IMG/VR virus record: IMGVR_UViG_2703718823_000009
Length of the DNA: 43,443 bases
Origin: a virus
Lineage: Duplodnaviria > Heunggongvirae > Uroviricota > Caudoviricetes
Direction: 5' to 3' (one strand)
Made by a program: the position numbers and the translations under genes. The notes beneath the pieces were generated by a model, which saw nothing but the letters and a program-made list of their open reading frames with translations, was not told the DNA's origin and searched no databases. Below, one piece after another: positions 30,669 to 43,443 of this stretch. Position 1 is the stretch's first letter. Each line of letters opens with the position of its first letter.

Positions 30669-30702
30669 CTAAAAGCCACACTAACTAATGAGAGAAGTTG
30701 AA

Positions 30703-31983
30703 ATGAAATATCCGACAGGCGTGGAAAACCATGGAGGGAAATTACGTATCTGGTTTGTTTATAAAGGCGTAAGAGTCAGGGAAAATCTGGGGGTTCCTGA
30801 CACAGCAAAAAACAGGCGCGTTGCAGGTGAACTACGCTCCTCTGTTTGTTACGCAATAAAAACTGGTGTTTTCGACTATGCAAAACAGTTTCCCTCCTCA
30901 CGCAATCTGGAAAAATTTGGTGAGGCCCGACAAGATTTAACCATAAAAGAACTGGCTGAAAAATTTCTGGCACTGAAAGAAACTGAAGTCGCCAAAACAT
31001 CACTCAACACATACCGTGCCGTCATCAAAAATATCCTGAGCATAATCGGTGAAAAAAATCTTGCCTCATCGATTAATAAAGAAAAATTACTGGAGGTTCG
31101 TAAAGAGCTACTGACTGGATACCAGATCCCCAAAAGTAACTATATTGTTACACAACCAGGGAGATCGGCTGTAACTGTAAATAATTACATGACAAATCTT
31201 AACGCCGTGTTCCAGTTTGGTGTTGATAACGGTTACCTGGCAGATAATCCGTTTAAGGGGATCTCGCCATTAAAGGAATCAAGAACCATTCCGGATCCTC
31301 TTTCGCGGGAGGAATTTATCCGTCTTATCGATGCGTGCAGAAATCAGCAAGCAAAAAATTTATGGTGTGTTTCTGTTTATACTGGCGTTCGCCCTGGTGA
31401 GCTGTGTGCACTTGGATGGGAGGACATAGATCTGAAAAATGGAACAATGATGATCAGGAGAAATTTAGCAAAAGACCGTTTCACGGTACCAAAAACACAG
31501 GCGGGAACCAATCGGGCCATTCATCTTATTAAGCCAGCAATCGACGCTCTCCGGAGTCAGATGACATTAACGAGACTGAGCAAAGAGCATATCATTGATG
31601 TTCACCTCAGAGAGTATGGCAGAACAGAAAAACAAAAATGCACCTTTGTTTTTCAACCTGAAGTGTCAGCGAGAGTAAAAAATTATGGTGACCATTTTAC
31701 CGTTGACTCAATAAGGCAGATGTGGGACGCAGCGATAAAACGTGCCGGACTCCGCCATCGAAAATCATATCAGTCGAGACATACTTATGCCTGCTGGTCG
31801 CTGACAGCTGGTGCTAACCCGGCATTTATAGCAAACCAGATGGGCCATGCAGATGCGCAAATGGTATTTCAGGTATACGGAAAATGGATGTCTGAAAACA
31901 ATAATGCACAGGTAGCTTTGTTAAATACACAGTTAAGCGAGTTTGCCCCAACCATGCCCCATAACGAATCAATGAAAAATTAA
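30703..31983 (+). CDS. tyrosine integrase (IntQ-like, apparently intact)
   Basis: About 426-aa ORF with tyrosine-recombinase C-terminal region (...HRKSYQSRHTYACW...); last prophage gene before rspB; alternative ATG at 30688. Confidence 0.85.
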   Translation: MKYPTGVENHGGKLRIWFVYKGVRVRENLGVPDTAKNRRVAGELRSSVCYAIKTGVFDYAKQFPSSRNLEKFGEARQDLTIKELAEKFLALKETEVAKTSLNTYRAVIKNILSIIGEKNLASSINKEKLLEVRKELLTGYQIPKSNYIVTQPGRSAVTVNNYMTNLNAVFQFGVDNGYLADNPFKGISPLKESRTIPDPLSREEFIRLIDACRNQQAKNLWCVSVYTGVRPGELCALGWEDIDLKNGTMMIRRNLAKDRFTVPKTQAGTNRAIHLIKPAIDALRSQMTLTRLSKEHIIDVHLREYGRTEKQKCTFVFQPEVSARVKNYGDHFTVDSIRQMWDAAIKRAGLRHRKSYQSRHTYACWSLTAGANPAFIANQMGHADAQMVFQVYGKWMSENNNAQVALLNTQLSEFAPTMPHNESMKN

Positions 31984-37343: not shown

Positions 37344-38754
37344 ATGTCCAAAAATGACCGAATGGTGGGCATCAGCCGCAGAACACTCGTTAAATCAACC
37401 GCGATAGGTTCTCTGGCGCTGGCTGCAGGCGGTTTTTCTTTACCGTTCACCCTGCGCAGTGCAGCGGCAGCGGTACAACAGGCCAGCGAAAAAGTGATCT
37501 GGGGTGCCTGTTCCGTCAACTGTGGTAGCCGCTGTGCACTTCGTCTACATGTTAAAGATAATGAAGTCACCTGGGTGGAAACTGACAACACCGGCAGCGA
37601 CGAGTATGGCAATCATCAAGTACGCGCCTGTTTGCGTGGTCGATCCATCCGTCGGCGTATTAATCATCCCGATCGCTTGAATTACCCAATGAAACGCGTG
37701 GGCAAACGCGGCGAAGGCAAATTCGAACGGATTAGCTGGGATGAAGCCCTGGATACTATCGCCAGTAGCCTGAAGAAAACCGTCGAACAATATGGCAATG
37801 AGGCTGTATATATTCAGTACTCTTCGGGGATCGTTGGCGGCAATATGACCCGCTCTTCGCCATCAGCCTCGGCGGTCAAACGCCTGATGAACTGCTACGG
37901 CGGTTCACTCAATCAGTATGGCTCCTACAGCACCGCGCAAATTTCCTGTGCCATGCCCTACACCTACGGCAGTAATGATGGCAACAGCACCACGGATATT
38001 GAAAACAGCAAGCTGGTCGTGATGTTTGGTAACAACCCGGCAGAAACCCGCATGAGCGGCGGTGGCATCACTTATCTTCTTGAAAAAGCGCGCGAGAAAT
38101 CGAACGCCAAAATGATTGCTATCGATCCGCGATATACCGATACGGCTGCTGGTCGTGAAGATGAATGGCTCCCTATTCGCCCGGGCACCGATGCCGCGCT
38201 GGTTGCGGGTATTGCCTGGGTATTGATTAACGAAAATCTCGTTGATCAACCTTTTCTCGATAAATACTGCGTCGGCTATGACGAAAAAACCTTACCCGCA
38301 GATGCACCCAAAAATAGTCACTATAAAGCCTATATTCTTGGTGAAGGTGATGATAACACAGCGAAAACGCCGCAGTGGGCTTCGCAAATTACCGGTATCC
38401 CGGTAGACCGTATCATCAAACTGGCGCGTGAAATTGGCACAGCAAAACCCGCTTATATCTGCCAGGGCTGGGGGCCGCAACGCCAGGCAAACGGCGAACT
38501 GACTGCACGCGCTATTGCTATGTTACCTATTTTGACGGGCAATGTCGGCATCAGCGGCGGAAATAGTGGCGCGCGTGAATCGACCTATACCATTACCATA
38601 GAACGCCTGCCGGTGCTGGATAATCCGGTCAAAATGTCAATCTCCTGCTTCAGCTGGACAGATGCTATCGATCATGGTCCGCAAATGACGGCAATCCGCG
38701 ACGGCGTCCGCGGCAAAGATAAACTGGATGTGCCCATTAAGTTCATCTGGAACT
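37344..38754 (+). pseudogene. ynfE: ynfE (Tat-exported molybdoenzyme) truncated after about 470 codons by insertion of foreign DNA
   Basis: Twin-arginine signal MSKNDRMVGISRRTLVK and DmsA-like sequence through ...PIKFIWN; the frame then runs 15 unrelated codons into the insert to a stop at 38801; full-length YnfE is about 800 aa (recalled). Confidence 0.8.
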
Positions 38755-38810
38755 TCAAGGACTTGAAGCGGACCCTTAGTAGGTCTGAGGTCCTGCATTG
38801 AGTCAAGGAC

Positions 38811-38843
38811 TTTGTGTCAGGCTTTGTGTCAGCCTTGTGTCAT
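38811..38843. repeat. short tandem repeat TTTGTGTCAG(G/C)C x3 near the element terminus
   Basis: ACTTTGTGTCAGGC TTTGTGTCAGCC TTGTGTCATT read directly. Confidence 0.6.
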
Positions 38844-38995
38844 TAGACGGGATGTCTAGACGGCTGGTCAGGACCCCGGTGGCCTCGGTCTGGACTTGAG
38901 GCGGGGCTATGGGGGAGAAGTCTGCTGGCTTAATGTATTAGATGGTCATTCACATTTTTCTGTCAGAAACCATCGGTCCCACTGTGAGTCCAAAC

Positions 38996-39151
38996 CTAAG
39001 CCCCCAGAAGCCCACCCACAGCCTTAGACAGAGTGTCGAATACATTCACACCGAGTCGACCGGAGAGGACCATATAGAGACCCACAGAGAGGAGCACGAG
39101 TTTATAGACCAGAGTCAGGAGGGACCTTAGGTCTGCGGAAGTCATGGACAT
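38996..39151 (-). CDS. small hydrophobic protein (51 aa) with strong RBS
   Basis: GGAGG 4 nt before ATG; MSMTSADLRSLLTLVYKLVLLSVGLYMVLSGRLGVNVFDTLSKAVGGLLGA; below ORF-track cutoff. Confidence 0.3.
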   Translation of the reverse strand: MSMTSADLRSLLTLVYKLVLLSVGLYMVLSGRLGVNVFDTLSKAVGGLLGA

Positions 39152-39204
39152 AAAGCCTCCTTCGTCTATTGTACTACTGCACTAGATAACTAGTACAAAA
39201 CAAA

Positions 39205-39229
39205 GGTCCAGACCATTGGTCCAGACCAT
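39205..39229. repeat. tandem repeat GGTCCAGACCAT x2
   Basis: GGTCCAGACCATTGGTCCAGACCAT read directly. Confidence 0.6.
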
Positions 39230-39389: not shown

Positions 39390-39629
39390 TCACAGTGACA
39401 GGCCACCACCTGAAGTCCTGCTGATATTCAGTCCAGACTTACCTCTGCTCATGGTCTTACCTCCCTCGGTCTCCTGACCTTGGGTATCGACTACAGCTTG
39501 CTGAGCGTCATCTGGAGGAGCTACAGGAGGAGCTACAGGAGGCGGGACCGAAGCCCCACCTTGAGTCCCACCACCACCTGTCAGGCCCTTGGCGATGGAC
39601 CTGAAGCCTTTACTAATGCTCTTACCCAT
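39390..39629 (-). CDS. Gly/Pro-rich small protein (79 aa), low complexity
   Basis: ORF with internal PPVAPPVAPP repeat from a 12-bp tandem DNA repeat; no clear RBS. Confidence 0.3.
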   Translation of the reverse strand: MGKSISKGFRSIAKGLTGGGGTQGGASVPPPVAPPVAPPDDAQQAVVDTQGQETEGGKTMSRGKSGLNISRTSGGGLSL

Positions 39630-40705: not shown

Positions 40706-41197
40706 TTATAAGCTGTCCAGCCAGTTACCGCCTGACTCAAGGTCAGCGACAATAGCGGCACGGGAGCGACCAGCGGAATGGGTTGCACTGCGGAGGTTCT
40801 CACCATAGGTCCGGCGTTCAGCTTTGACTTGTTCGCGGCGCTGTAGCTCTTTCTGCCACTCTGCATCGGTCATGTTCTCTTCACGCATACGCTCTTTCTG
40901 AGATGCCAGCTCTTTAGCGATACGCTCAGCCTCAGCTCGTTTGTTAAGCTGGCGGCGACCATAGGCGGTCATCAGGTCATTACTGAAGAAGTTGCCAATA
41001 GCTACGCCAGCTTCAGCCAGAGCTTCCAGTAACTCCATTGCCTCGCGGCTGGTAGACGGCAGGCCTGACAGGTAGCCCGGAATGAGGGTCTTGATAGCGA
41101 GCGACAGCGGATAGGGCTGACCGTCCAGACTCACAGTGTTTTCATAAAGGTTGATGTCGGTGACTGACAGCTTCCAGTTGTTGTTGTTGAACATCAT
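40706..41197 (-). CDS. hypothetical protein (163 aa) with charged helical C-terminal half
   Basis: ATGATG start with AGAGGAG RBS; C-terminus ...AERIAKELASQKERMREENMTDAEWQKELQRREQVKAERR... Confidence 0.5.
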   Translation of the reverse strand: MMFNNNNWKLSVTDINLYENTVSLDGQPYPLSLAIKTLIPGYLSGLPSTSREAMELLEALAEAGVAIGNFFSNDLMTAYGRRQLNKRAEAERIAKELASQKERMREENMTDAEWQKELQRREQVKAERRTYGENLRSATHSAGRSRAAIVADLESGGNWLDSL

Positions 41198-41293: not shown

Positions 41294-41461
41294 TTAGGCA
41301 GACAGTTTCATAGCGACCAGTTGCGCTATCAGCTCGTCTCGGGATTGGTGCTGGCGGGTCTCATCTTCCGGGTCTAGACCAAGCTCTCTGAGGAGGACTT
41401 CAGTCCGGTAGCCACGGTAACGGAGAGTCATGCGGCCCTCAGGTGTGCGTGGGTCAATCAT
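41294..41461 (-). CDS. small translationally coupled ORF (55 aa)
   Basis: ATG 1 nt after the KilA-N gene stop, preceded by AAGGGAGG; MIDPRTPEGRMTLRYRGYRTEVLLRELGLDPEDETRQHQSRDELIAQLVAMKLSA. Confidence 0.3.
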   Translation of the reverse strand: MIDPRTPEGRMTLRYRGYRTEVLLRELGLDPEDETRQHQSRDELIAQLVAMKLSA

Positions 41462-41462
41462 C

Positions 41463-42221
41463 TTAGAGTCCTCCCTTAGCGCACAGACGAACCAGCTCGA
41501 CCTTGTTGGACTTAAGCCACTCGTAACCCTTGGTGAGGACCTTAAGCCCCTCCTGACCGTTATAGTGGTTATCCTGAAGACGGTAATAGCCGTTCTCCAG
41601 ACCCTTAGGATTGAAGCTGGTCATCCAGCCACCTGACGAGATGTCAAATACAGGCTGTCCTCGACCGTCCAGCTTGCGACTATAGAAGGGATTAGCTATA
41701 CGCCCTGACTTCAATACGGCATTAAGAGCCTTGGCTGATACCAGCTTTGTACCTAACCTGAAGTCGAGATTCTTAAGACACTCTGTCAGGGTGTGGCCCT
41801 GCTTCGGGTTATCCAGCTTTTCCAGCCAGTTACGGGCTATAGGCTTGAGACCCTTAAGTTCCTTGGAGTCCTGCGCCAGCGCCTTAGCTTCCGACACTTT
41901 GTCGTTACGTAAAGCGATGAAAGCACGGATGACCTTAAGGTAGAAATCAGGTGAGACCCACATCGCATAGGCAATAGCCGCCTCTTCAGTAGCCCATGTC
42001 CCCGGAGTCGAACCACCATGAGCAACATGCAAATTTGCATCTTGGTCAAGAAGCGTCCTGACGCTAGAACGCCACTGACCCGGCTCCTTAGCAGATGGAA
42101 GCTCAAGCTCTTTATGTAGCTCGTTCAGGTTCCACATACGGTCCTGATTACAGGCCCAGTGATAGCCGTCAACGATGACAGGAAGAACTACTTCATGCTT
42201 CATTAAGGGTTGAGTTGACAT
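41463..42221 (-). CDS. KilA-N domain protein (possible antirepressor/regulator)
   Basis: N-terminal ...GTWATEEAAIAYAMWVSPDFYLKVIRAF... matches the KilA-N signature as recalled; AAGGAG RBS 9 nt before ATG. Confidence 0.6.
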   Translation of the reverse strand: MSTQPLMKHEVVLPVIVDGYHWACNQDRMWNLNELHKELELPSAKEPGQWRSSVRTLLDQDANLHVAHGGSTPGTWATEEAAIAYAMWVSPDFYLKVIRAFIALRNDKVSEAKALAQDSKELKGLKPIARNWLEKLDNPKQGHTLTECLKNLDFRLGTKLVSAKALNAVLKSGRIANPFYSRKLDGRGQPVFDISSGGWMTSFNPKGLENGYYRLQDNHYNGQEGLKVLTKGYEWLKSNKVELVRLCAKGGL

Positions 42222-42568
42222 ATCGTTGTACTCCTTTTGTTATGCCTCCTGAAGTCACACCCTGAAAGCCTACTCAAGCCCCCAACGATAGGGAGACTCA
42301 CAGGCAACAGGAGACATACAGAAAGACTTGAGGTAATAAGGTCGTGTGAAGACCATGTTAACTTTTTCCTACTGGCTACTAGATAACTAGCGTGTCTCCA
42401 TATGTATAAAGGCGGGACCGCATGTCAGGACGAGCTGTAAGGACTTCCAGATGGTGAGCGGTGATAAACTTAAGCCAATGAGTAGTGAGTAGACGAGCTA
42501 CTAACAGATGACTGAAGAACGCTAACGAGCTGGAGGTCATACAGGAGGTCTGACAGAGGCGGAAGCAG

Positions 42569-42591
42569 GTCTCCTATAGTGATAGTTTAGG
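42569..42591 (-). promoter_or_regulatory. phage single-subunit RNAP promoter-like motif P2
   Basis: Minus strand CCTAAACTATCACTATA|GGAGAC (-17 to +6); compare SP6 ATTTAGGTGACACTATAGAAG and T7 TAATACGACTCACTATAGGGAGA. Confidence 0.5.
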
Positions 42592-42596
42592 GTCTG

Positions 42597-42619
42597 GTCC
42601 CCTATAGTGAGTGCTTATT
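42597..42619 (-). promoter_or_regulatory. phage single-subunit RNAP promoter-like motif P1
   Basis: Minus strand AATAAGCACTCACTATA|GGGGAC; positions -10 to +3 identical to T7 consensus (ACTCACTATAGGG), -11/-12 differ. Confidence 0.5.
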
Positions 42620-43082
42620 CCATCATCCCTTTATCACAGAGCACCTTCTTCATGTTCACAGAGGTAGCCTGAAGTACAGAGTTAACGTGGCGTAGGTAGC
42701 GAGGAGACGGGGAGCGACCCGTGATTGCCGTGTAGGAGATGTCAGTATTGCGGGAGAAGATATCGTTGGTGCCATATAAGGCAGCGAACAGGTAGGCCTT
42801 GGAGACCGGGAGTCCCACGCTGTTAGAGAGACCTGAAGGACGTGAGAGTCCTGTAAACACATCGTCTGCCCATGGGTAGGCCTCAGCAAGCTGCGTATAG
42901 GAGAGACACCCAGTCTCAATCAGCCACAGCCTCACAGACCGATTGTCGATGACCACAGGCGGCTTACCTGTACGGGCCTTAGGTTCATCATAGGTCGGCG
43001 CTGGTAGCTGCTCATGGTCGAGGTCTCCACCGAAGAAGGCCTCATTGTCGGACTCTGAGTAGCATTGAATTGTAATAGCCAT
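42615..43082 (-). CDS. hypothetical protein (155 aa), first gene of the minus-strand cassette
   Basis: ATG at 43082 with AGAGGAGG RBS 7 nt upstream; P3 motif 80 nt upstream. Confidence 0.5.
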   Translation of the reverse strand: MAITIQCYSESDNEAFFGGDLDHEQLPAPTYDEPKARTGKPPVVIDNRSVRLWLIETGCLSYTQLAEAYPWADDVFTGLSRPSGLSNSVGLPVSKAYLFAALYGTNDIFSRNTDISYTAITGRSPSPRYLRHVNSVLQATSVNMKKVLCDKGMME

Positions 43083-43156
43083 GGATGGGCCTCCTCTTAA
43101 GGTTGGCTACTTGCAGTGGGTAGCAGCGGTTTCGGTTAGATGGAGGACAGGCGTGT

Positions 43157-43179
43157 CTCTCCTAGGGTGATAGTTAAGG
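43157..43179 (-). promoter_or_regulatory. phage single-subunit RNAP promoter-like motif P3
   Basis: Minus strand CCTTAACTATCACCCTA|GGAGAG; shares an extended 28-bp match with P2. Confidence 0.4.
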
Positions 43180-43237
43180 GTCTGAGCCCAAACTTCCGAA
43201 GGTGAGGGATTATTGTAAGATACTGAAAGCTAATGGA

Positions 43238-43324
43238 AAGTTGGAGGGACCTGAGTTTAGGACGCAGTTTAAATAAGACACCAAGTTGGAGGACCTGAGT
43301 TTAGGGTGCAGTTTAAATAAGACC
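43238..43324. repeat. tandem direct repeat, 2 units of about 44 bp (iteron-like)
   Basis: AAGTTGGAGGGACCTGAGTTTAGGACGCAGTTTAAATAAGACACC followed by AAGTTGGAGGACCTGAGTTTAGGGTGCAGTTTAAATAAGACCAC. Confidence 0.7.
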
Positions 43325-43386
43325 ACAGACAGACTTAGAGTCGGACAGCCGAAGGCGAACCAGTGGGCCTATAGTCAGGAGGGATT

Positions 43387-43443
43387 ATGATTATTATCAC
43401 CCTCCATAACTTCAGTCGTAAGCGACTCGTCAGAACCGTATTG
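43387..43443 (+). CDS. start of a divergent plus-strand gene (partial)
   Basis: AGGAGGG RBS 3-4 nt before ATG at 43387; MIIITLHNFSRKRLVRTV... open to window end. Confidence 0.3.
   Translation, partial: MIIITLHNFSRKRLVRTVL

Follow-up and report, generated by a model that had tools for sequence, protein, structure and literature searches.

Promoters for Kayfunavirus RNA polymerases in a capsid-encoding chromosomal element of enterobacteria suggest a satellite of virulent T7-like phages

The IMG/VR virus record IMGVR_UViG_2703718823_000009, a stretch of 43,443 nucleotides (nt) analysed in full and hereafter called the window, carries near its right end three T7-group promoter motifs (P1, P2 and P3), which lie within an integrase-bearing element of about 6.5 kb inserted in the gene ynfE, the window ending inside this element at position 43443. 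Judged by their sequence, P2 and P3 belong to the promoters that are read by the single-subunit RNA polymerases (RNAPs) of Kayfunavirus, the K1F group of T7-like phages. We consider it probable that the element is a satellite of virulent Kayfunavirus phages and that the motifs are promoters for the RNAP of this helper. In its complete form, towards which we lean, the proposal describes the first recognised satellite family of virulent T7-like (Kayfunavirus) phages, consisting of polymerase-less mini-genomes of 6.1-6.8 kb which would be switched on by the helper RNAP via tandem promoters of dual specificity, build or remodel capsids by means of an HK97-fold protein of their own, be packaged through a mimic of the phage terminus and carry variable anti-phage cassettes. 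The observations that support it directly are the identity of the promoters, the conservation of their strand and position, the fold of the capsid protein, the terminus mimic and the tight size range of the elements.

A sequence-only reading of the window had reported the three motifs as T7/SP6-family promoter-like sequences, and direct reading together with an explicit scan confirmed them and their coordinates, all on the minus strand (Table 1). The distances given for them are also correct, the +1 of P3 being 80 nt from the ATG at 43082 of a gene for a protein of 155 amino acids (aa), and the +1 of P2, for a tandem P1/P2 pair placed about 350 nt upstream of the KilA-N gene, being 353 nt from the ATG at 42221. 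The agreement of P1 with the T7 consensus between -10 and +3 extends over 13 contiguous positions. The 28-bp core described as common to P2 and P3 had to be reworded, the stretch being indeed present at both sites but with three mismatches. The 10-mer TCACTATAGG occurs exactly twice in the window when both strands are searched, and both copies are at these motifs.

The motifs were scored with two position weight matrices (PWMs), a K1F-type matrix made from the 11 annotated promoters of the Citrobacter phage CR44b, a Kayfunavirus, and a type-2 matrix made from 12 promoters of phage Ro103C3lw, the chance level being set by the highest score among 200 simulated windows of 43 kb. With the CR44b matrix, P2 reached 30.9 bits and P3 22.6 bits, for authentic promoters between 29.3 and 35.0 bits and a simulated maximum of 18.4; with the Ro103C3lw matrix, P1 reached 24.2 bits (authentic promoters 25.3-34.9, simulated maximum 20.0). 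No further match of at least 21 bits was found in the remaining window, in the flanks of the copy of the element in E. coli UMNK88, or in the host flanks of 75 related loci. From -17 to +2, P2 is identical over 19 nt to the CR44b promoters, given as MCTWAACTATCACTATAGGR for the set of 11, and it has TATA at -4 to -1 followed by G at +1 and +2. P3 has CCTA instead, the CC at -4/-3 being the sole deviation of its core. Since the CR44b promoter ahead of gene 4 reads CACCTTAGG, and since 14 of the promoter matches in the 75 related loci are CACCTTAGG or CACCCTAGG variants, P3 is probably a weaker, class II-like promoter. A possible decayed type-2 partner of P3, CAATAATCCCTCACCTTCGGA, is tentative, its score with the type-2 PWM (15.5 bits) not being above chance alone and its distance to P3 being 35 nt versus the usual 25-31 nt.

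The suggestion of the sequence-only reading that the cognate enzyme would be a T7-group polymerase other than that of T7 is strengthened by the ACTAT block of P2 and P3 at -12 to -8, the cognate of the K1F loop. Table 2 of PMC11880802, which cites Temme 2012, pairs ACTAT at -12 to -8, on experimental grounds, with the K1F specificity loop (754S/756N/761V) and ACCCT at the same positions with 748D. Used with its upstream context as a 32-nt query, P2 finds 1,350 sites spread over 214 phage records, with five to seven matches per genome in the 30 phages listed, of which the named ones are mostly Kayfunavirus (K1F group). In CR44b the matched places are its annotated promoters, and the loop of the CR44b RNAP reads TRLNLMFLGSFNLQPTV, that is N748/S754/N756/V761. 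Compared over the 23 bp from -17 to +6 with the multi-copy consensus of Kayfunavirus, P2 scores within the authentic range, and P3 below this range but above all simulated windows. Ro103C3lw is also classified as Kayfunavirus and its RNAP is 88% identical to that of CR44b, but it has D748 (as in T3) and R756, and this D748 enzyme goes with ACCCT promoters. Two RNAP classes are thus seen in the genus, with N/N or D/R at loop positions 748/756 and with ACTAT or ACCCT promoter sets. The type-2 promoter forms multi-copy sites in another set of T7-like phages, namely Ro103C3lw, GW1, vB_CtuP_B1, SFP20/21B and the Enterobacter IJM phages.

In the relatives of the element, the position of P1 is taken by ATTATACCCTCACTATAGGGA or AATAACCCCTCACTATAGGGG, which carry the T3-like ACCCT and lie 25-31 nt upstream of the K1F-type promoter, and the core of P1 from -9 to +4 is the same as that of the ACCCT-type promoters of these related elements. 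At -12 to -8, P1 has GCACT (G at -12, A at -10) and not the ACCCT of a canonical T3-like, D748 promoter. One ACACT variant is present among the Ro103C3lw promoters, and GCACT is the promoter consensus of no sequenced phage, in contrast to ACCCT, which is used by the Ro103C3lw/GW1/SFP20 sublineage. The most fitting description of P1 is that of a type-2 promoter off consensus, type-2 by its position and not a canonical member of the class. Since Ro103C3lw (ACCCT/D748) and CR44b (ACTAT/N756) are both Kayfunavirus, the tandem pairs bring together two RNAP specificities of one genus.

The family-wide distribution of the promoters was established in 75 loci (707 kb) found with the capsid protein of the element in genome, IMG/VR and metagenome scans, with a promoter threshold of at least 21 bits. 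The loci come from E. coli, Shigella, Citrobacter, Leclercia, Enterobacter and Buttiauxella, with a further homologue in Rouxiella. All 106 promoter matches are on the coding strand of the element and, apart from three in a locus interrupted by the insertion sequence IS66 (L072, 4.6-5.2 kb), they lie 1.5-4 kb upstream of the capsid gene. At least one match is present in each of the 45 loci with sufficient upstream sequence, and 23 of the 24 tandem pairs have the order type-2 then K1F-type, with a spacing of 25-36 nt; the usual arrangement of the promoters is such a pair, with about 27 nt between its members. The promoters are kept while the flanking sequence diverges from locus to locus. The K1F-type promoter sequence is found in 298 of 5,426 complete E. 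coli genomes (about 5%), always on the chromosome, and the four places sampled among these carriers all belong to one element family with insertion sites in ynfE and tRNA-Gly. A chance resemblance, in which the motifs would not be polymerase binding sites, could account for the departure of P1 and P3 from consensus; it is nevertheless effectively refuted by PWM scores above those of all 200 simulated windows and by the strand bias and conserved positions throughout the family, to which the exact 19-nt consensus match of P2 and the empty host flanks can be added. In EHEC-size genomes, such as those of the enterohaemorrhagic E. coli (EHEC) strain 6817 (L072) and of L140, the tRNA-Gly-type element adjoins the ETT2 type III secretion remnant, and the EHEC-size copies often have two promoter places and an IS66 insertion.

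The genes of the element are all on one strand, in the order integrase, P3, 155-aa protein, P1 and P2, 347-nt leader, KilA-N, 55-aa, 163-aa and 331-aa proteins, followed by the 79-aa and 52-aa proteins, a terminator hairpin, the 51-aa protein, the terminus mimic and att. The 331-aa protein has no Pfam or PHROG family match. A first AlphaFold2 (AF2) model built from a shallow multiple sequence alignment (MSA) was unusable (predicted local distance difference test, pLDDT, 47.5), and the modelling was rescued by distant homologues, an MSA of 41 sequences from an exhaustive hidden Markov model search giving a model with a pLDDT of 84.4 and a predicted TM-score (pTM) of 0.80. Compared with the PDB by Foldseek, this model has 198 matches at E<=1e-3, and all 50 that were listed are phage HK97-fold capsids or encapsulins, those of the T7-like phages PhiM1, Kp9 and HRP29 included. 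The distant homologues bear Ig domains at the C-terminus, a feature common among capsid proteins. By its modelled structure, the protein is an HK97-fold major capsid protein, for which neither BLASTP nor hhalign reveals any sequence similarity to Kayfunavirus gp10 and whose profile finds no match among the PDB sequences. The 163-aa protein encoded directly 5' of it is, from its position, a candidate scaffold and has no significant similarity to Kayfunavirus gp9. The 79-aa homologue of the small virion protein gp6.7 of T7 is weakly similar to Kayfunavirus gp6.7 and matches PF11653 with E=0.006, below the threshold of Pfam. The operon ends with a Tφ-like hairpin of -16.6 kcal/mol (z = -4.3), and an equivalent hairpin is found 3' of the capsid gene in the tRNA-Gly-type elements (-18.3 kcal/mol, z = -3.9).

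Between P2 and the KilA-N gene, the last ~110 nt of the untranslated leader (42222-42345) form a structured 5' untranslated region that is kept in 37 loci (21 distinct sequences), whichever regulator comes next (KilA-N, Rha or another); RNAalifold predicts 27 pairs, five of them with compensatory changes. This structured leader may act in translation or serve as a site for RNase III, by analogy with T7 mRNAs. About 75 nt past the +1 of P2, the leader also contains ATCTGTT (42495-42501, minus strand), a lone 7-mer that is not significant alone. At the concatemer junction of T7, the class II pause/termination signal has ATCTGTT as its core.

Besides the promoters, the only similarity of the element to phage DNA is in short cis blocks. 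When the whole element was compared by blastn with 50,697 phage records, no match at E<=1e-5 was obtained. At the end opposite to the integrase, a segment of ~110 nt mimics the junction between the right end and the terminal repeat of Kayfunavirus genomes (blastn against phages, E=4e-4). The alignment of this junction has 39 invariant columns over seven elements, from at least five genera, and three phages; the phage genome end TCTCACAG shares its column with TCTAATAC of the elements, the predicted end-equivalent, which in the window lies at 38942-38935. A block of 24 nt after the integrase, GGTGATAATAATCATAATCCCTCC, has its Kayfunavirus counterpart between the rightmost promoter (the φOR equivalent) and gene 19.5; its copy in UMNK88 is an exact match to CR44b 38563-38586. 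In the ynfE-type elements, TCTCTGGGTCTCCCTATCTGTAT, inside the 5' end of the integrase gene, resembles the end of the phage terminal repeat, or concatemer junction (CJ) site; it is missing from the tRNA-Gly-type elements. The interval that separates the integrase from P3 contains 1.9 tandem copies of a 44-nt unit, AAGTTGGAGGGACCTGAGTTTAGGACGCAGTTTAAATAAGACACC, at 43238-43323, and a single copy in UMNK88; the unit recalls the short repeat arrays beside the terminal repeats of T7-like phages.

In the window, the element extends from 38755 to beyond 43443 and its integrase is outside. The full copy in E. coli UMNK88 (L001) is 6.59 kb long and adds a tyrosine integrase of 540 aa. The att core is duplicated in 26 loci, and the att-to-att length is 6.13-6.83 kb in the 44 loci with both cores, despite their variable cassettes (6.32-6.83 kb for the ynfE-type and 6.13-6.45 kb for the tRNA-Gly-type, the outliers bearing IS66, IS3 or IS600). 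The two types have unrelated integrases (30% identity) for the ynfE and tRNA-Gly sites and share the core of 55-aa, 163-aa and capsid genes. The genomic features of phage satellites in general are found here, namely an integrase with att sites, an incomplete set of virion genes, helper promoters and a terminus mimic. The insertion splits ynfE, which encodes the A subunit of a dimethyl sulfoxide/selenate reductase (37344-38801), leaving an N-terminal fragment of 485 aa that reads into the element, and UMNK88 has an intact copy of the downstream paralogue ynfF. By the att core, 11-nt repeats of the CTGACACAAAG type (2.9 copies at 38810-38842), which recur near the start of the L001 integrase, are probably arm-type integrase binding sites, and remain putative as such. 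No credible Rfam match was found in the element. The window from 1 to about 32000 is a lambdoid prophage of the Qin/DicB-region type, with structural genes and an integrase (30688-31983), which is unrelated to the motifs and is followed by rspAB, ynfA-D and speG.

Table 1. Features of the element and of the sequences compared with it. Positions refer to the window unless another locus is named.
Feature	Position	Strand	Remarks
24-nt block GGTGATAATAATCATAATCCCTCC	43378-43401	-	after integrase; one mismatch to Kayfunavirus
Possible decayed type-2 partner of P3, CAATAATCCCTCACCTTCGGA	43195-43215	-	tentative
P3, CCTTAACTATCACCCTAGGAGAG	43157-43179	-	+1 G at 43162; K1F-type variant, CC at -4/-3; 5' of the 155-aa cassette gene
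155-aa cassette gene	42615-43082	-	open reading frame (ORF); would be transcribed from P3, from the sequence
P1, AATAAGCACTCACTATAGGGGAC	42597-42619	-	+1 G at 42602; overlaps stop codon of the 155-aa ORF; upstream member of tandem pair; type-2 (T3-like, D748-RNAP) class with atypical GCACT at -12 to -8
P2, CCTAAACTATCACTATAGGAGAC	42569-42591	-	spans -17 to +6; +1 G at 42574; downstream member of tandem pair; would drive leader, KilA-N and structural operon
Untranslated leader, 347 nt, 3' of P1/P2	42222-42568	-	sequence
KilA-N domain protein, 252 aa	41463-42221	-	PF04383, E=1.3e-9; phrog_129
55-aa protein, first gene of conserved core	41294-41461	-	tblastn matches in all complete loci
163-aa protein, directly 5' of capsid gene	40706-41197	-	87-95% identity in relatives
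HK97-fold major capsid protein (modelled), ~329-331 aa	39635-40630	-	AF2 and Foldseek
79-aa homologue of T7 gp6.7 small virion protein	39390-39629	-	phrog_1320, E=1.8e-11, full length
Tφ-like terminator	39195-39227	-	10-bp hairpin then UUUGUUUUG (U-tract); end of structural operon
51-aa hydrophobic protein, past terminator	38996-39151	-	ORF; conserved in ynfE-type relatives
Mimic of Kayfunavirus right-end/terminal-repeat junction, ~110 nt	38850-38975	-	CGATGGTTTCTGACAGAAAAATGTGA..ATC/TCTAATAC..CCCCCATAGCCCC..AGTCCAGACC
att core CATCTGGAACT	38744-38754	+	inside ynfE; junction comparison with UMNK88 (L001)
RNAP gene of CR44b	L005: 1906-4587		compared with that of Ro103C3lw
RNAP gene of Ro103C3lw	L075: 2561-5227		compared with that of CR44b
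PD-T7-4/RAZR genes	L062: 4786-5442; L065: 4725-5384; L068: 4833-5492; L072: 7755-8414		tRNA-Gly-type relatives

As an alternative, which we regard as very improbable, a temperate T7-like prophage could have decayed to the element and left the promoters as functionless relics. Integrase-bearing T7-like phages do exist, LUZ100 being given as one in PMC10134795, and the element resembles a T7 genome in its ends, its collinearity and the placement of all genes on one strand. On the other hand, no fragment of an RNAP, a DNA polymerase, a portal, a tail or a terminase was detected by Pfam, PHROG or tblastx against CR44b, the ORFs are intact, and more than 40 loci, which represent at least six genera and two types of integrase, share the architecture and the 6.1-6.8-kb size. 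The conservation of the promoters amid diverging flanks and a capsid protein without sequence similarity to Kayfunavirus gp10 are equally at odds with a relic.

The description of the motifs as lying upstream of cassette genes is supported by the relatives, in which the downstream genes vary. The genes between the integrase and the core differ greatly from one relative to another, and the KilA-N slot can be filled by Rha-family or other proteins. The 155-aa protein has no match in Pfam, PHROG, NCBIfam, PADLOC or the PDB, and the homologues recovered are 18 enterobacterial hypothetical proteins with 76-99% identity, none of them from a phage. The KilA-N protein is a weak candidate match in PADLOC. 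In the tRNA-Gly-type relatives, PD-T7-4/RAZR (DUF4145; PADLOC E=3.9e-97) overlaps the stop codon of the integrase. It is a validated anti-T7 defence gene (PMC9519451, PMC13017515), and RAZR acts as an RNase once activated by the portal rings of T7 or T3 (PMC13017515). On the context of PD-T7-4, Vassallo et al. say only that the gene "often overlaps an integrase", and its mobile context within a family of capsid-encoding elements does not seem to have been described.

These cassettes raise the possibility of an infection-sensing defence island, in which the promoters would switch on toxic or abortive-infection cassettes, perhaps with the capsid protein as a decoy, and in which the element would be neither packaged nor transferred. 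The high variability of the region between integrase and core, the presence of PD-T7-4/RAZR right after the integrase, the PADLOC candidate match of KilA-N and the location of the promoters directly 5' of the cassettes are all in agreement with it. However, RAZR is upstream of the phage promoters and has its own promoter in the cited work, and defence alone leaves the conserved capsid gene, the gp6.7 homologue, the terminus mimic and the 6.1-6.8-kb limit unexplained. We therefore hold a pure defence island to be unlikely, the two readings being partly compatible, so that a defensive role of the cassettes does not exclude the satellite.

For the satellite of Kayfunavirus that we favour, the following course can be proposed. 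In the uninfected cell, there would be no polymerase to read the promoters of the cassette and structural genes and the element would stay silent. Upon infection by a Kayfunavirus, the helper RNAP would fire P3, leading to expression of the 155-aa cassette gene, and P1 together with P2, leading to transcription of the leader and of the KilA-N, 55-aa, 163-aa, capsid and gp6.7-like genes up to the Tφ-like terminator. As the tandem pair joins the T3-like/D748 and the K1F/N756 specificities, the element could respond to either RNAP lineage of Kayfunavirus. P1 and P2 may also prime replication, as at the φ1.1A/B origin of T7, and the helper terminase would cut and package the element via its copy of the genome end and concatemer junction. 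More speculatively, the 6.1-6.8-kb size could correspond to unit-length DNA in small capsids or to about six copies (~39 kb) in a head of helper size; six copies of the element, ~39 kb, equal the length of a Kayfunavirus genome. It is in this sense that we infer transcription, excision, replication, packaging and transfer of the element.

Several points weigh against this proposal. P3 scores about 7 bits under the authentic promoters and P1 marginally under the weakest authentic type-2 promoter, and searches with P1, in which a 37-mer was compared with phages and a 15-mer with IMG/VR, give single chance-level matches only and no multi-copy site. The integrase is upstream of all three promoters and is therefore not obviously induced by the phage. 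The element has no portal, terminase, tail or replication gene, so that all else must come from the helper. The contigs of about 6.5 kb in Logan, ENA and JGI are integrated copies with ynfE or tRNA flanks and include no free or circular form, and the capsid gene is absent from the 50,697 phage records (tblastn) and from virome-type contigs, the IMG/VR matches to the capsid protein being large prophage-type contigs. Finally, a boundary resembling the right terminal repeat or CJ, CCCTATCTGTAT, occurs in the ynfE-type only and is absent in the tRNA-Gly-type, and it was not relied on.

Comparison with known systems helps to place the element. The promoters of CR44b and other Kayfunavirus have the same 23-bp architecture, ACTAT block, TATA melting region and GG start as P2, with the difference that P2 and P3 are chromosomal, on an element devoid of an RNAP gene, and that P2 is paired with a promoter of another specificity. 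Tandem promoters, a long untranslated stretch and a copy of the genome end recall the φ1.1A/φ1.1B origin and the concatemer junction of T7, although P1 and P2 differ in specificity and no AT-rich origin core was identified. Chung and Hinkle are said to have reported in 1990 that plasmids with the T7 primary origin and the concatemer junction are replicated and packaged by T7, and what replication and packaging of the T7 type require in cis is these two elements, tandem promoters and the genome-end junction. With the phage satellites in general the element shares an integrase, a chromosomal location, a narrow size range and relatives with defence genes; it resembles cf-PICIs by its own capsid protein, PICMI by its minimal size of ~6 kb, and PLE and PICMI as a proposed parasite of virulent phages. 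It differs from cf-PICIs, which encode capsid, portal, head-tail connector and small and large terminase, in having the capsid only when judged by Pfam and PHROG profiles, and from PICMI, which is found in Vibrionaceae, has no capsid-related genes and is packaged as a concatemer, in having a capsid gene and in residing in Enterobacteriaceae. Set against the satellites as a group, P4, PICI, PLE and PICMI included, it has no portal, terminase, connector, primase/rep or repressor, and its candidate helper is a T7-like podovirus. Its activation would apparently depend directly on helper-RNAP promoters, versus derepression or host RNAP in the known satellites. The literature outside subscription-only sources yielded no satellite of T7-like or Kayfunavirus phages and no satellite using phage-RNAP promoters.

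A closer likeness in logic is offered by the virophages. Those of the Sputnik type carry the motif of the late promoters of the giant virus that helps them, and in both cases the transcription signals of the helper stand ahead of the genes of the parasite, which would restrict expression to infected cells; however, the giant viruses of the virophages infect eukaryotes and have a viral RNAP of several subunits, and there is no sequence or evolutionary relationship between the two.

A cell infected by a T7-like phage loses its own transcription and its DNA within minutes, and whether and how a chromosomal parasite could exploit such phages is the question that the element would answer, if the proposal is true. 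It would then be a bacterial parallel to the promoter mimicry of virophages and would represent a new logic of satellite induction, with no repressor and no host RNAP, as well as giving a genomic context to the anti-T7 gene PD-T7-4/RAZR. The natural tandem of K1F-type and T3-type promoters also provides ready parts for circuits with orthogonal polymerases. With about 5% of complete E. coli genomes carrying them, EHEC lineages included, these elements may affect therapeutic Kayfunavirus phages.

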